Assembly: GCF_003334305.1 (NCBI RefSeq) | Contig: NZ_QOWS01000010.1 | Origin: Escherichia coli | GTDB lineage: Bacteria > Pseudomonadota > Gammaproteobacteria > Enterobacterales > Enterobacteriaceae | Direction: 5' to 3' (one strand) | DNA length: 64,000 nt | Shown: piece by piece, positions 3,005-39,602 of the stretch | Layout of the letters: every line of letters begins with the position of its first letter | Position numbering within the stretch: the first letter of the stretch is position 1 | Translations under genes and position numbers: made by a program | Notes under the pieces: generated by a model | Databases searched by the model: none | The model's input: only the letters and a program-made list of their open reading frames with translations | Told to the model about the DNA's origin: nothing

Positions 3005-4300
3005 TTAATCGCTGTTTTTGGCAATTAAACGTTCCGGGATAACAAAACTGAAACGTGTTCCTTTTCCTACTGTACTCTCAATATTCAGGCGACTTTCGTG
3101 ATGATTCACAGCATGTTTCACGATCGCTAACCCTAATCCGCTACCGCCGGTTTGCCGGGAACGCGCTTTATCAACGCGATAAAAACGCTCGGTCAGGCGC
3201 GGAATATGCTCCGCTGCAATGCCCGGTCCGTTATCTTCAACGCTAAATTCGGCACCGTGCGGCACTCGCTGCCAGCGTACGGTGATATGCGTGCCTTCTG
3301 GAGTATGATTCACGGCGTTATAGACCAGGTTCGAAATCGCACTGCGTAGCTGATCTTCGTTGCCAGACACTTTGAGGCCGTTATCTATCTCAAAGGTAAA
3401 TGTCTGTTTTTTCTGACTCAGAGTCTGAGCCTCACGCTCAACAACGCGCAGCATCATCGGCACATCAACCTTTTCATTGAGCAAATGCGTCGGTGCGGCT
3501 TCTATTTTCGACAGCGTCAGCAACTGCTTCACCAGCCCTTCCATCCGCTGGGTCTGCTCGCGCATGGTGTGCAACGCTTTTTCGCGTACCGCGCCTTCCA
3601 GCGGCTGCTCATCCATCATCTCCAGGTAACCCTGTAACACGGTCAATGGCGTACGTAACTCATGGCTCACGTTGGCAAAAAAGTTACGCCGCGCCCCTTC
3701 CAGTTGATGCATTTGCGTGACATCACGCGCCACCATCAGCAACTGTTTGTGGGTATAAGGCATGACGCGAATTTCCAGATGCCGCCCGGTGTTGAGCACC
3801 AGATTGAGCGGGCGAGAAAAATCACGCGTTTTCAGATATTGCGTAAACTCCGGGTAACGCAGCAGGTTAAGGATGTTCTGCCCGTTATCTTCCGGCCAGC
3901 GCAAACCAAGAATCTGTTGCGCCAGACCGTTACACCAGAAAATACCGCCCTCTTCCGTGGTCAGCACCACTGCGTCGGGCAGCGACTCCGCGCCGCTACG
4001 AAAGCGTTTAATCAGATTGCCCAGTTCACGGCGGCGTTTTTTATTTCGCAGCTGCATCTGGTGTAAGCCGTATAGTAGCGGTTCCCAGCTACCACGCCCC
4101 GGTGGCGGGGTCATACTACGATCCACCCACAGCCACCATGAAAGGCGCAATAAATTCCAGAAATGCCAGATAAGCAGTCCCGTTACCGATGCCAGCAAAA
4201 ACCAGGGCAGGTAACCAAAAAATGCACCCAGGATGAAAGCCGGGAGGCAGCAAAGTAACAGCTCCAGCACCAGCCTTTTCCACGACAGCCGTTCCAGCAC
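3005..4300 (-). CDS. phoR: Phosphate regulon sensor histidine kinase PhoR
   Basis: 431-aa ORF; N-terminal membrane anchor, histidine kinase motifs (HELRTPL), ATPase domain; adjacent to phoB. Confidence 0.95.
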
Positions 4301-36205: not shown

Positions 36206-36877
36206 GTGGATAAGGTTTTAGATTCAGCCCTCCTTTCTTCGGCAAATAAAAGAAAGGGTATCCTTGCTATTGGCGCACATCCTGACGATATAGAATTAGG
36301 CTGTGGCGCATCGCTTGCTCGTCTTGCGCAAAAAGGAATTTATATCGCAGCCGTGGTGATGACTACCGGCAACTCTGGTACAGATGGAATAATCGATCGC
36401 CATGAAGAATCGCGCAACGCCCTAAAGATATTAGGGTGCCACCAAACTATTCATCTTAATTTTGCTGACACCCGCGCTCATTTACAGCTCAATGATATGA
36501 TTTCCGCTCTGGAAGACATCATTAAAAATCAAATTCCTTCTGATGTTGAAATCATGCGGGTATATACCATGCATGATGCCGACCGCCATCAGGATCATCT
36601 CGCTGTTTATCAAGCTTCAATGGTTGCCTGCCGCACTATTCCACAAATTCTCGGCTACGAAACCCCAAGTACCTGGCTTTCATTTATGCCTCAGGTTTTT
36701 GAATCCGTTAAAGAAGAATATTTCACAGTCAAACTTGCTGCATTAAAAAAACATAAAAGCCAGGAACGACGCGATTATATGCGTCATGATCGCCTGCGTG
36801 CAGTTGCACAATTTCGCGGGCAACAGGTCAATAGCGATCTGGGTGAAGGCTTTGTAATTCATAAAATGATTCTTTGA
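36206..36877 (+). CDS. yaiS: PIG-L/LmbE family N-acetylglucosaminyl deacetylase-like protein YaiS
   Basis: 223 codons from GTG 36206 (GGAG 9 nt upstream); AHPDD motif near N-terminus and HQDH motif typical of LmbE-like zinc deacetylases. Confidence 0.8.
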   Translation: MDKVLDSALLSSANKRKGILAIGAHPDDIELGCGASLARLAQKGIYIAAVVMTTGNSGTDGIIDRHEESRNALKILGCHQTIHLNFADTRAHLQLNDMISALEDIIKNQIPSDVEIMRVYTMHDADRHQDHLAVYQASMVACRTIPQILGYETPSTWLSFMPQVFESVKEEYFTVKLAALKKHKSQERRDYMRHDRLRAVAQFRGQQVNSDLGEGFVIHKMIL

Positions 36878-36886
36878 GCAAATTGC

Positions 36887-38083
36887 ATGAAAACCTGGAT
36901 ATTTATCTGTATGTCCATAGCAATGTTGCTATGGTTTTTAAGTACGCTAAGACGTAAACCCAGTCAAAAGAAAGGCTGTATTGACGCCATTATACCTGCG
37001 TATAACGAAGGCCCGTGTCTGGCGCAGTCACTGGATAATCTACTGCGTAACCCTTATTTTTGCCGGGTAATTTGCGTTAACGACGGCTCCACGGACAATA
37101 CCGAAGCGGTCATGGCGGAAGTCAAACGCAAATGGGGCGACCGCTTTGTTGCCGTCACGCAAAAAAATACCGGTAAAGGTGGTGCGCTGATGAATGGCCT
37201 CAATTATGCCACCTGCGACCAGGTTTTTTTAAGTGATGCCGACACCTATGTTCCGCCCGATCAAGACGGAATGGGCTATATGCTGGCAGAAATTGAGCGC
37301 GGTGCTGATGCCGTAGGCGGCATTCCCTCTACTGCGTTGAAAGGCGCGGGGCTGTTACCGCACATCCGCGCGACCGTAAAGTTGCCGATGATTGTTATGA
37401 AGCGCACGCTACAGCAGCTCCTGGGCGGCGCACCGTTTATTATCAGCGGTGCCTGCGGAATGTTCCGCACTGATGTATTGCGTAAGTTCGGTTTCTCAGA
37501 TCGTACTAAAGTCGAAGACCTTGATCTCACCTGGACATTAGTGGCAAACGGCTACCGTATTCGGCAGGCGAATCGCTGCATCGTATACCCACAGGAATGC
37601 AACAGCCCGCGTGAGGAGTGGCGTCGCTGGCGGCGTTGGATTGTGGGATACGCGGTCTGTATGCGCCTGCATAAAAGACTTTTATTTAGCCGCTTCGGTA
37701 TCTTCAGTATATTTCCTATGCTGTTGGTTGTGATTTATGGCGTTGGGATTTATCTCACTACCTGGTTTAATGAATTCATCACCACCGGGCCGCATGGTGT
37801 GGTGTTGGCAATGTTTCCGCTTATCTGGATCGGCGTAGTTTGTGTTATTGGTGCTTTTAGCGCCTGGTTTCATCGTTGCTGGTTGTTGGTGCCTTTAGCG
37901 CCGCTTTCCGTTGTGTATGTATTATTAGCTTATGCCATCTGGATTATTTATGGACTTATTGCCTTTTTTACTGGACGCGAACCTCAGCGCGACAAACCCA
38001 CCCGCTATTCCGCACTGGTGGAAGCGTCAACCGCTTATTCCCAACCTTCTGTCACAGGAACTGAAAAACTATCTGAAGCTTAA
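36887..38083 (+). CDS. yaiP: Membrane-anchored family 2 glycosyltransferase YaiP
   Basis: 398-aa ORF; N-terminal TM helix, GT2 core (IIPAYNEG, DAD), RRWRRW motif, several C-terminal hydrophobic helices. Confidence 0.85.
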   Translation: MKTWIFICMSIAMLLWFLSTLRRKPSQKKGCIDAIIPAYNEGPCLAQSLDNLLRNPYFCRVICVNDGSTDNTEAVMAEVKRKWGDRFVAVTQKNTGKGGALMNGLNYATCDQVFLSDADTYVPPDQDGMGYMLAEIERGADAVGGIPSTALKGAGLLPHIRATVKLPMIVMKRTLQQLLGGAPFIISGACGMFRTDVLRKFGFSDRTKVEDLDLTWTLVANGYRIRQANRCIVYPQECNSPREEWRRWRRWIVGYAVCMRLHKRLLFSRFGIFSIFPMLLVVIYGVGIYLTTWFNEFITTGPHGVVLAMFPLIWIGVVCVIGAFSAWFHRCWLLVPLAPLSVVYVLLAYAIWIIYGLIAFFTGREPQRDKPTRYSALVEASTAYSQPSVTGTEKLSEA

Positions 38084-38642
38084 TGTTAAAGAGAAAAATA
38101 TTCAGATTGCAGACCAGGTAATTATTGATGAAACTGCAGGTGAAGTTGTTATCGGCGCGAATACCCGTATTTGTCATGGTGCCGTTATTCAGGGTCCGGT
38201 AGTAATTGGCGCAAACTGCCTGATAGGTAATTATGCGTTTATTCGTCCTGGCACAATAATCAGCAATGGTGTAAAAATTGGTTTTGCCACCGAAATTAAA
38301 AATGCGGTTATTGAAGCGGAAGCAACGATTGGTCCGCAATGTTTTATTGCCGACTCGGTAGTTGCAAACCAGGCATATTTGGGCGCACAAGTACGTACCA
38401 GTAATCATCGTCTGGATGAACAGCCTGTGTCTGTTCGAACTCCAGAGGGAATTATCGCTACCGGATGCGATAAATTAGGTTGTTATATCGGGCAGCGTTC
38501 ACGCCTTGGCGTACAAGTTATAATTTTGCCTGGGCGAATTATTTCCCCGAACACGCAACTTGGCCCGCGCGTGATTGTAGAACGTAATTTACCTGCCGGA
38601 ACTTATTCACTCCGACAAGAACTTATCCGTACAGGAGATTAA
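37932..38642 (+). CDS. yaiX: Hexapeptide-repeat (left-handed beta-helix) acyl/acetyltransferase YaiX; start uncertain
   Basis: Repeated [LIV]GxxxxI hexapeptides (IGANTRICHGAVIQGPVVIGANCLIGNYAFIRPG...); frame overlaps yaiP 3' end by 152 nt and no ATG/GTG/TTG lies in frame downstream of the yaiP stop. Confidence 0.65.
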   Translation: MPSGLFMDLLPFLLDANLSATNPPAIPHWWKRQPLIPNLLSQELKNYLKLNVKEKNIQIADQVIIDETAGEVVIGANTRICHGAVIQGPVVIGANCLIGNYAFIRPGTIISNGVKIGFATEIKNAVIEAEATIGPQCFIADSVVANQAYLGAQVRTSNHRLDEQPVSVRTPEGIIATGCDKLGCYIGQRSRLGVQVIILPGRIISPNTQLGPRVIVERNLPAGTYSLRQELIRTGD

Positions 38643-38643
38643 A

Positions 38644-39417
38644 ATGATAAAACGGACGTTATTAGCGGCGGCCATTTTTAGCGCATTGCCCGCTTATGCC
38701 GGGTTAACTTCCATTACCGCGGGCTACGATTTTACCGATTATTCTGGCGATCATGGCAACCGTAATTTAGCGTATGCTGAACTGGTGGCGAAAGTTGAAA
38801 ACGCAACGCTGCTTTTTAATCTTTCCCAGGGGCGTCGTGATTATGAAACTGAACATTTCAATGCCACTCGCGGTCAGGGTGCGGTCTGGTATAAATGGAA
38901 TAACTGGCTGACAACCCGAACGGGTATTGCCTTTGCGGATAATACGCCGGTCTTTGCCCGCCAGGATTTTCGTCAGGATATTAACCTGGCCCTGTTGCCA
39001 AAAACGCTTTTCACGACCGGTTATCGCTACACTAAATATTACGATGATGTCGAAGTCGATGCCTGGCAAGGCGGCGTATCACTCTATACTGGCCCGGTGA
39101 TCACCAGCTACCGCTATACCCATTATGACTCCAGCGATGCAGGTGGTAGTTATAGCAATATGATTTCCGTGCGTCTGAATGACCCGCGCGGCACTGGTTA
39201 TACGCAACTATGGCTAAGCCGCGGAACAGGCGCTTACACCTATGACTGGACGCCAGAAACACGCTACGGCAGCATGAAGAGCGTCAGTCTGCAACGTATT
39301 CAACCGCTGACTGAGCAACTTAATCTCGGGCTGACGGCAGGTAAAGTGTGGTACGACACCCCAACCGATGATTATAACGGTCTGCAACTTGCAGCCCATC
39401 TGACCTGGAAATTCTGA
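38644..39417 (+). CDS. yaiO: Outer-membrane beta-barrel protein YaiO
   Basis: 257-aa ORF, signal peptide (…ALPAYA|G), alternating amphipathic strands, C-terminal …LTWKF; AGGAG SD; ATG one nt after yaiX stop. Confidence 0.88.
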   Translation: MIKRTLLAAAIFSALPAYAGLTSITAGYDFTDYSGDHGNRNLAYAELVAKVENATLLFNLSQGRRDYETEHFNATRGQGAVWYKWNNWLTTRTGIAFADNTPVFARQDFRQDINLALLPKTLFTTGYRYTKYYDDVEVDAWQGGVSLYTGPVITSYRYTHYDSSDAGGSYSNMISVRLNDPRGTGYTQLWLSRGTGAYTYDWTPETRYGSMKSVSLQRIQPLTEQLNLGLTAGKVWYDTPTDDYNGLQLAAHLTWKF

Positions 39418-39526
39418 TTCCTTCTGCCGCCCGCTATCCGGGGCGGCCTTCCCTGCCGATTAGCCCCCCCCTTTCCTCTTTGTTTTCCGACCACATTCAC
39501 CGGATAAATTTTATTCTCCAGTGTTA

Positions 39527-39577
39527 TATACTATAGGGGGGTATGCATTGACATATAGCATACCCCCCTATAGTATA
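39527..39577 (+). promoter_or_regulatory. frmRAB promoter embedded in FrmR operator palindrome
   Basis: Perfect 20-bp inverted repeat TATACTATAGGGGGGTATGC / GCATACCCCCCTATAGTATA around an 11-bp spacer containing TTGACA (39548-39553); TAGTAT -10 candidate 17 bp downstream. Confidence 0.7.
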
Positions 39578-39602
39578 TTGTGTGCAGATAATGAGGTGCG
39601 AA

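Follow-up and report, generated by a model that had tools for sequence, protein, structure and literature searches.

Where does translation of yaiX begin in Escherichia coli? The question arises in the yaiS-yaiP-yaiX-yaiO cluster, which adjoins tauA and frmRAB in a 64,000-nucleotide stretch of contig NZ_QOWS01000010.1 (assembly GCF_003334305.1). This whole stretch is called the window here, and its yaiX gene is free of the IS2 interruption. The original prediction, made from the letters alone, held that the yaiX frame contains no ATG, GTG or TTG between the stop codon of the upstream gene yaiP and the hexapeptide repeats. This was correct, and the next such codon is TTG 38379, at residue 144 of 230 and far inside the hexapeptide domain. 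Comparison with orthologous loci indicates that yaiX probably starts at ATG 37950, inside yaiP, and that it encodes a 230-amino-acid protein via a derived co-directional overlap of 134 nt. The overlap is genuine and derived, unusually long, and ordinary in kind. The argument turns on the following features:

36887 to 38083, plus strand: yaiP, encoding a membrane glycosyltransferase of family GT2 with 398 amino acids (PF13641/PF00535/PF13632), from ATG 36887 to TAA 38081-38083.
37932 to 37934, plus strand: alternative start ATG, present in Escherichia only, which would give a 236-amino-acid form and a 152-nt overlap.
37950 to 38642, plus strand: yaiX, encoding a left-handed beta-helix (LbH, hexapeptide) acetyltransferase of 230 amino acids, from the best-supported start, ATG 37950, to TAA 38640-38642.
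37950 to 38083, plus strand: dual-coding overlap of 134 nt, with the yaiX frame at +1 relative to yaiP.
37950 to 38015, plus strand: 5' half of the overlap, encoding the N-terminal extension of YaiX MDLLPFLLDANLSATNPPAIPH (22 codons) and residues 355-376 of YaiP YGLIAFFTGREPQRDKPTRYSA.
37959 to 37961, plus strand: in-frame TTG, a possible minor alternative start three codons past ATG 37950, with TTG at the matching site in the enterobacterial-type loci listed.
38003 to 38005, plus strand: CGC, Arg373 of YaiP, the site of the ancestral Shine-Dalgarno (SD) motif, which is lost here (AGG in distant orthologues).
38007 to 38009, plus strand: ATT, a near-cognate start candidate without SD motif, three codons 5' of Trp-Trp.
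38013 to 38015, plus strand: CAC, the site of the ancestral yaiX start codon, no longer a start (ATG or GTG in distant orthologues).
38016 to 38021, plus strand: TGGTGG, the near-invariant Trp-Trp pair (W23/W24) of the YaiX family, encoded within yaiP.
38024 to 38083, plus strand: stop-loss extension of yaiP, 19 codons ASTAYSQPSVTGTEKLSEA plus the stop; the ancestral stop lay at the position of codon 380.
38061 to 38063, plus strand: CTG, the start chosen by PGAP, giving a 193-amino-acid product (GTG at the same site in Citrobacter-type loci).

The yaiX frame (frame 0, with yaiP in frame 2) is open after TAG 37926-37928 and until TAA 38640-38642. The out-of-frame overlap of 152 nt that had been described for it is right when counted from ATG 37932 to the yaiP stop. 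ATG 37932 and ATG 37950 are indeed candidate starts within yaiP, although they are not the only two, as had been claimed, because TTG 37959 was overlooked. The statement that neither has a recognisable SD motif was essentially right, the best anti-SD duplexes being +0.9 kcal/mol (37932) and -3.1 kcal/mol (37950). Taken alone, an open alternative frame this long is not unusual, as 8.9% of the shuffled sequences were free of stops. What goes beyond chance at the overlap is its conservation, not the open frame itself.

The downstream frame belongs to a separate, functional gene under purifying selection. In the non-overlapping part, yaiX has a dN/dS of 0.06-0.18 in lineages without the ancestral start, and the region occurs in 4451 of 5426 genomes. 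The searches yielded 527 YaiX and 642 YaiP homologues. In addition, a repaired K-12 yaiX promotes vegetative clumping, for which YaiP is required (EcoGene 3.0, PMC3531124). The orthologues, the purifying selection on yaiX and the reported phenotype of the repaired gene together establish that yaiX and yaiP are both real genes.

The origin of the overlap can be read from distant relatives. Six proteobacterial loci were read, from Pseudomonas viridiflava, Sphingomonas, and alphaproteobacterial and other proteobacterial metagenome-assembled genomes (MAGs). In these loci the GT2 gene ends with ...DKPTRYAxVVx and a stop codon, and the acetyltransferase gene starts with ATG or GTG followed by TGG-TGG, so that it overlaps with the GT2 stop by 14 nt. 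The Arg of the TRY motif is encoded by AGG, and this (G)AGG lies 7-8 nt 5' of the start, with an anti-SD duplex of -3.9 to -7.2 kcal/mol. In two loci of the candidate phyla radiation the same yaiX start follows a PIG-L gene; it has a good SD motif there, and the genes do not overlap. ATG or GTG is thus found immediately 5' of TGGTGG in 8 distant loci. The original prediction had named a conserved separate start codon in orthologues as the result that would speak against its proposals, and distant orthologues do have one. The Acinetobacter locus L019, whose match start was out of register, was left out at the DNA level; two YaiP homologues of Acinetobacter were found, P0204 and P0229 (the latter from the L019 strain), and P0204, the one that was read, has the ancestral end ...TRYKNVVE followed by the stop.

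The protein alignments agree with this picture. Homologues with about 50% identity have about 206 amino acids and begin with M/V-W-W-R-E-L, which is aligned with H-W-W-K-R-Q of E. coli. Exactly one residue (M or V) precedes Trp-Trp in 49 of the 120 best YaiX matches, and W23 and W24 are at least 90% conserved in an alignment of 59 sequences. The 22-codon extension MDLLPFLLDANLSATNPPAIPH does not occur in distant orthologues.

Sixteen loci of the enterobacterial type were read, 12 of which were non-redundant. They comprised the window, E. whittamii, two paralogues of Citrobacter braakii, Citrobacter FP75, Superficieibacter, an 'Ignatzschineria' MAG, an IncF plasmid copy identical to the latter, a second E. 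marmotae type, Salmonella, Enterobacter, and plasmid copies. None of the three ancestral elements, i.e. the start, the SD motif and the GT2 stop at a distance of 14 nt, was present in any of the 16 loci. The codon ahead of Trp-Trp is CAC, TAC, CCT, CGT or CGG, the Arg codon of YaiP is CGN (CGC, CGT or CGA) and never AGG, and the old yaiP stop is gone, such that YaiP is about 19-24 residues longer. In the window, CGC and CAC occupy the former SD and start sites, the anti-SD duplex is about 0, and the features of short-overlap coupling are therefore missing. Some of these loci contain an ATG or TTG 2-4 codons ahead of Trp-Trp, without SD motif; no such codon occurs in E. coli, Citrobacter, the second E. 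marmotae type or the plasmid type.

Five chromosomal loci have an overlap of 134 nt, two others have overlaps of 137 and 149 nt, and the plasmid copies L025 and L028 have the yaiP stop at the same position as the 134-nt loci. The extended yaiP stop (window 38079-38083; also L006, L007, L008 and L010) is found at the same site in six of seven chromosomal enterobacterial loci, as TAA, TGA or TAG, and it needs a T at the third position of a Leu or Ile codon (CTT/ATT) in the yaiX frame. The constancy of the stop position may reflect selection, or chance.

That the yaiX frame is read inside yaiP was indicated by a comparison of the two frames, from which segment 'D', misaligned by indels, was left out. 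Between Trp-Trp and the yaiP stop, the yaiX frame has a mean pairwise amino acid identity of 0.57, compared with 0.37 for the yaiP frame, which is thus at the level of the off-frame baseline of 0.36. From ATG 37950 to Trp-Trp, the yaiP frame is the more conserved one (0.88 versus 0.65 in the yaiX frame). TGGTGG was retained in every locus examined, and wherever residue 378 of YaiP is Val, its codon is GTG, the sole Val codon that is compatible with Trp in the other frame. Because it is the yaiX frame, rather than the yaiP frame, that is conserved from Trp-Trp to the stop, translation of yaiX must begin upstream of 38016. This excludes CTG 38049, CTG 38061 and ATT 38100 as sole starts. It also means that the overlap is not a mispredicted start, since conserved YaiX residues (38016-38083) are encoded inside yaiP.

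The position of the start was narrowed down by synonymous codon usage in yaiP. In the codon alignment, the synonymous-codon identity is 0.40 +/- 0.06 gene-wide and 0.42-0.44 over the 15 codons ahead of ATG 37950. It rises to 0.69-0.71 at codons 355-366, which is above all 318 other windows of 12 codons (maximum 0.58), and synonymous sites are otherwise saturated (pS 0.6-0.8). In the six distant loci the value at codons 355-366 is 0.41, and the constraint climbs only from about codon 367, at their own SD, start and overlap. Among complete E. coli genomes, 4821 of 4862 records (99.2%) match the window exactly over the 67 nt that begin at 37950, and 3870 of 4780 do so over the 67 nt directly after them. 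The control segments are identical in 1740 of 3765 (yaiP) and in 11 of 3125 (yaiX) cases. Of the 67-nt stretches compared in this way, the two halves of the overlap are the most conserved.

An ATG equivalent to 37950 is present in all 16 enterobacterial-type loci, and the sequence xAT GGA in 12 of the 12 non-redundant ones. It is the only canonical in-frame start 5' of Trp-Trp that these loci have in common. An in-frame stop lies one codon ahead of this ATG in L009 and L026 (the 'Ignatzschineria' MAG and the plasmid copy), and four codons ahead of it in L010. ATG 37950 lies in the part of yaiP that encodes the last membrane and tail segment. Its surroundings consist of 70% A+U, and they form the least structured 61-nt window nearby (-3.9 versus -11 to -18 kcal/mol). 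No internal promoter, terminator or RNA family was detected in the overlap above the shuffled expectation or the Rfam thresholds.

Several observations speak against a start at ATG 37950. Its SD score is at background level, as the -3.1 kcal/mol of the TGGAT motif compares with 46% of yaiP positions that reach -3.0. The xAT GGA sequence is also kept in loci that have an ATG 2-4 codons ahead of Trp-Trp (L008, L020, L022 and L027), and two sites nearer to the conserved core, 38007 (ATT/ATA) and 38061 (CTG/GTG), also carry start-capable codons. The third codon position of yaiP is the second position of yaiX, and selection on the peptide and selection on the RNA are therefore inseparable by the synonymous signal. 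The comparison rests on 12 non-redundant, related loci. The added 20 residues of YaiX are predicted to be disordered and have no evident function, and no start-site or proteomic evidence was found in the literature on yaiX and yaiP.

Alternative starts were weighed against these data. The original prediction had considered a non-canonical initiation codon, and PGAP has indeed made such a choice. In this case, yaiX would start at CTG 38061, 38049 or 37971, at ATT 38007, or at ATT 38100 or 38106, with a shorter YaiX and a short overlap that is possibly coupled to yaiP. We regard this as unlikely. CTG starts are annotated by PGAP, the site 38061 is GTG in L006, L007, L010 and L028, with an AGGA nearby (-4.3 kcal/mol), and the stretch 38055-38115 is also weakly structured; the GTG of the Citrobacter-type loci explains the choice made by PGAP. 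However, three different CTGs in three genomes do not make a consistent model, and the starts 38049, 38061 and 38100 would remove the Trp-Trp segment, whose conservation in the yaiX frame extends to all enterobacterial loci. For CTG 38049 and 38061 this means the deletion of a selected, near-invariant Trp-Trp pair. ATT 38100 is GTT in B2 strains. The codon three ahead of Trp-Trp, at 38007, is always ATT, ATA, ATG or TTG in the enterobacterial loci, all of which are start-capable, but ATT 38007 has no SD motif (+0.4), and its first two letters are fixed by the TAT codon for Tyr374 of yaiP. None of the non-canonical or downstream candidates accounts for the jump in synonymous constraint at codon 355. 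A further candidate, the TAATG at 38081-38085 as a coupled start, was rejected, as it lies in the third frame, opens an open reading frame (ORF) of 12 codons, and is not conserved. This ORF (MLKRKIFRLQTR, window 38083-38121) is probably fortuitous, as its ATG is missing in E. whittamii and Superficieibacter.

It is quite improbable that the Escherichia gene starts at the first ATG, 37932, with 236 amino acids and an overlap of 152 nt. This codon is the first canonical start past the in-frame stop, both E. coli and E. whittamii have kept it, and the 236-amino-acid form is used in the literature. The corresponding site is not ATG, however, in the Citrobacter, Superficieibacter, L009, L010 and L023 types, and in L009 and L010 in-frame stops separate it from the conserved ATG. 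ATG 37932 also has the worst anti-SD score among the candidates (+0.9), the synonymous constraint at codons 349-354 is at background, and the curated K-12 start is 37950, not 37932. The original prediction had also raised a +1 frameshift that would produce a fusion of the glycosyltransferase and the acyltransferase. That yaiX is not translated independently in E. coli, being either a decaying gene or the second part of a YaiP-YaiX fusion made by +1 frameshifting, appears very unlikely. Neither an SD motif nor a canonical start is found near the conserved core of YaiX, a study from 2026 remarked on the missing SD motif and suspected minimal expression, and rare variants fuse the frames by 1-nt homopolymer indels (P0151 in an A5 run, P0032 in a T6 run). 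On the other hand, decay or fusion does not fit with the occurrence of the region in so many genomes, the low dN/dS and the phenotype of the repaired gene. A prfB-like, shift-prone site was not found, as the codons ahead of the sole stop in the yaiP frame are GCT, AAT or ACT, which do not allow +1 re-pairing, and neither a properly spaced SD motif nor a conserved stimulator occurs at the yaiP stop. A frameshift at this stop would bypass the conserved Trp-Trp, and in L009 a stop closes the yaiX frame one codon ahead of the ATG. No fusion of a YaiP-type GT2 with an LbH domain occurs among the 120 best YaiP matches (save P0151), the 120 best YaiX matches (save the fragment P0032) or the 150 best representatives; the only fusions in these sets are the rare homopolymer-indel variants.

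Two further candidates for a fusion were discarded. P0362, the only long glycosyltransferase-LbH match checked among the 150 best representatives, is of the GT4 type and belongs to another family. A -1 or transcriptional slippage on the A5 runs (38064-38068 or 38094-38098) was rejected because the runs are too short, slippage there would bypass the conserved Trp-Trp, and the only fusions found are the rare indel variants. The two indel variants, P0151 and P0032, are clusters of 15 and 27 members found in Logan assemblies only, with 1-nt changes in the A5 (38064-38068) and T6 (37964-37969) runs, respectively; they could reflect true variation between strains or errors of assembly.

How could a start at ATG 37950 have arisen? 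In the ancestral arrangement, as seen in distant orthologues, yaiX had its ATG or GTG right before Trp-Trp, an AGG SD motif in the Arg codon of the YaiP TRY motif, and a 14-nt overlap. The comparison shows that the enterobacterial lineage lost the yaiX start codon, the AGG SD motif and the old yaiP stop. An ATG that pre-existed by accident in the Tyr/His-Gly codons of YaiP (xAT GGx), 22 codons upstream, may have been recruited as the start; an ATG equivalent to 37950 also occurs, by chance, in three of the six distant loci. Recruitment would have given YaiX its disordered N-terminal extension, and YaiP acquired about 19 unconstrained C-terminal residues. The long overlap would thus have arisen because enterobacteria lost the original start signal of yaiX.

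A start 134 nt ahead of the upstream stop is probably too far away for coupling by termination and reinitiation. This distance makes coupling implausible, and we therefore infer de novo internal initiation, which would be essentially independent of an SD motif and take place inside the translated yaiP gene. The proposal of an unusually long overlap with coupled translation was thus right in placing the start inside yaiP, yet the start is better placed at ATG 37950 (134 nt) than at 37932, and coupling is unlikely at that distance. The output of YaiX would probably be low, because initiation would be SD-independent and would occur inside a translated ORF. SD-independent initiation has been described genome-wide (PMC7043885), and the context of ATG 37950 fits with that description.

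On sequence grounds, YaiX is a member of the left-handed beta-helix acyltransferase family, for which acyl transfer is predicted. The LbH domain was detected with Pfam LbH_EIF2B (3e-10) and Hexapep (3e-9), with matches covering residues 47-211, and in NCBIfam YaiX matches the C-terminal domain of archaeal-type GlmU, under the curated cutoff. The matches to the LbH models of Pfam and NCBIfam do not begin before residue 47, and the Trp-Trp segment is therefore a family-specific N-terminal element. The AlphaFold2 model of YaiX has a mean pLDDT of 84, with values of more than 95 in the beta-helix and of 68-83 in the Trp-Trp region and the short helices that follow it. Residues 1-20, counted from ATG 37950, have a pLDDT of less than 50 and are predicted to be disordered.

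Databases and literature treat the yaiX start in different ways. PGAP chose three CTG starts in three genomes, equivalent to 38061, 38049 and 37971 of the window. A YaiX of 236 amino acids, starting at ATG 37932, is found in KEGG and in the functional study from 2026 (PMC13058169), which described YaiX as lacking an SD motif and suspected minimal expression. In contrast, ENA-derived clusters contain the 230-amino-acid form that starts at ATG 37950. In the curated K-12 record NC_000913.3, the yaiX pseudogene b4579 starts at 382872 with ATG GAC TTA TTG, which corresponds to window position 37950 and lies 134 nt ahead of the end of yaiP. The overlapping start is therefore already known, as it is recorded in the K-12 reference annotation. 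What is added here is comparative support for it and a reconstruction of how the overlap would have originated. The CTG models of PGAP and the 236-amino-acid model are probably wrong.

How does this pair compare with known overlaps? Short coupled co-directional overlaps (ATGA, TAATG, up to about 15 nt, with the SD motif in the upstream gene) are the same as the ancestral state described here, and gene order and operon are alike. In the window pair, in contrast, the SD motif, the start and the upstream stop of that state are gone, and the start lies 134 nt ahead of the yaiP stop. Among 715 candidates in 338 genomes, none of the co-directional overlaps of more than 60 bp was judged real in a survey, in which the longest real one was holD-rimI with 32-56 bp (PMC2478687). 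The yaiP-yaiX pair resembles holD-rimI in that two conserved enzyme genes overlap co-directionally, that the overlap is kept across Enterobacteria, and that it is supported by comparing both protein ends; with 134 nt, however, it is more than twice as long. The length-versus-orthologue rule of that survey would flag yaiP-yaiX as a '5' and 3' extension' error. Unidirectional overlaps have been reported to originate by loss and replacement of start and stop codons (Fonseca, Harris and Posada 2013, PMC3887535). Both routes of this model are seen in yaiP-yaiX, namely 3' elongation by loss of a stop, and 5' elongation by loss of a start and adoption of an upstream ATG. What sets yaiP-yaiX apart is that both routes are combined in one pair and that the ancestral and the derived states both exist in living lineages.

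The likeness to prfB-type +1 frameshifting is limited to the geometry, with the downstream frame at +1, whereas a shift-prone codon next to a stop or hungry codon, a stimulatory SD motif and a conserved fusion product are all missing here. Non-AUG initiation exists in E. coli, at the AUU codons of infC and pcnB. Similarly, ATT or ATA lies three codons ahead of Trp-Trp in most enterobacterial loci, and PGAP invokes CTG. In contrast to infC and pcnB, however, no SD motif or other signal was found at these codons, and the constraint begins at the upstream ATG.

The remaining two genes of the cluster flank the pair:

36206 to 36877, plus strand: yaiS, the first gene of the cluster, an ORF for a PIG-L family deacetylase; intact allele of 223 amino acids.
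38644 to 39417, plus strand: yaiO, encoding an outer-membrane beta-barrel protein (TIGR04390, 184 bits versus a cutoff of 32).

In the orthologous loci a PIG-L gene stands 5' of the GT2 gene. NCBIfam matches under the cutoff were obtained for the yaiS product (BshB1 deacetylase) and for YaiP (PgaC/IcaA-like). The yaiO start lies 1 nt past the yaiX stop and has a good SD motif (anti-SD duplex -7.4). In L022 (Enterobacter sp. PGRG2, 3141-3226), YaiX has a C-terminal extension of about 25 residues, and the end called for its gene and the start called for yaiO overlap by 86 nt. Either the operon has acquired another stop-loss overlap here, or the yaiO start may have been miscalled.

Complete yaiS-yaiP-yaiX-yaiO cassettes were also found on conjugative IncF plasmids of E. 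coli and Salmonella (L025-L028), with a YaiX that is 53-98% identical to the chromosomal copy, and YaiP is identical in the 'Ignatzschineria' MAG (L009) and the plasmid copy L026. These plasmid cassettes and the identity of L009 and L026 show that the cluster is horizontally mobile. In K-12, codon 186 of yaiS is changed from CAG to TAG, resulting in an annotated YaiS of 185 amino acids, whereas yaiS is intact in the window; in strains H15 and D97-1, PGAP labels yaiS a pseudogene. Between the window and a B2 strain (L003), YaiS is 62% identical, in contrast to 95-98% for YaiP, YaiX and YaiO, which suggests recombination or a mosaic boundary at the yaiS/yaiP junction. The gene ykiC (39 codons, window 36743-36862, minus strand), annotated in K-12 as encoding the small protein YkiC, is intact, with one substitution, and lies antisense within the 3' end of the full-length yaiS. 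In K-12, where yaiS is truncated, the two genes share no more than the final 21 nt of yaiS, and the rest of ykiC lies downstream. P0039, a predicted protein of 348 amino acids from one 2.6-kb Logan contig, has TauA-like substrate-binding domains fused to the last 137 residues of YaiX and is probably a deletion or an assembly chimera across the tauA-yaiX interval. At and just upstream of the frmR start, a palindromic stretch (window 39511-39594) yielded sub-threshold matches to plant and animal miRNA families on both strands. These matches are due to chance in a hairpin-forming region, which is possibly the frm operator or promoter.

Taken together, we lean towards the view that yaiP-yaiX is a selectively maintained, 134-nt dual-coding overlap of two conserved enzyme genes in a widespread E. 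coli operon, which would have been made by the joint loss of SD motif, start and stop, and would be expressed by SD-independent initiation in a translated ORF. The finding is mainly useful as a correction of annotation, and no new mechanism is required. Thousands of RefSeq E. coli genomes have a YaiX with a CTG start, and the models that start at 38049 and 38061 lose the Trp-Trp N-terminus. The comparative evidence favours the 230-amino-acid form of the curated K-12 record, and experiments with YaiX should use this form. If this view is true, the pair would be a documented exception to the survey conclusion that real co-directional overlaps of more than 60 bp do not exist, and it would offer a reconstructable example of a short, SD-coupled overlap that became a long, dual-coding one.

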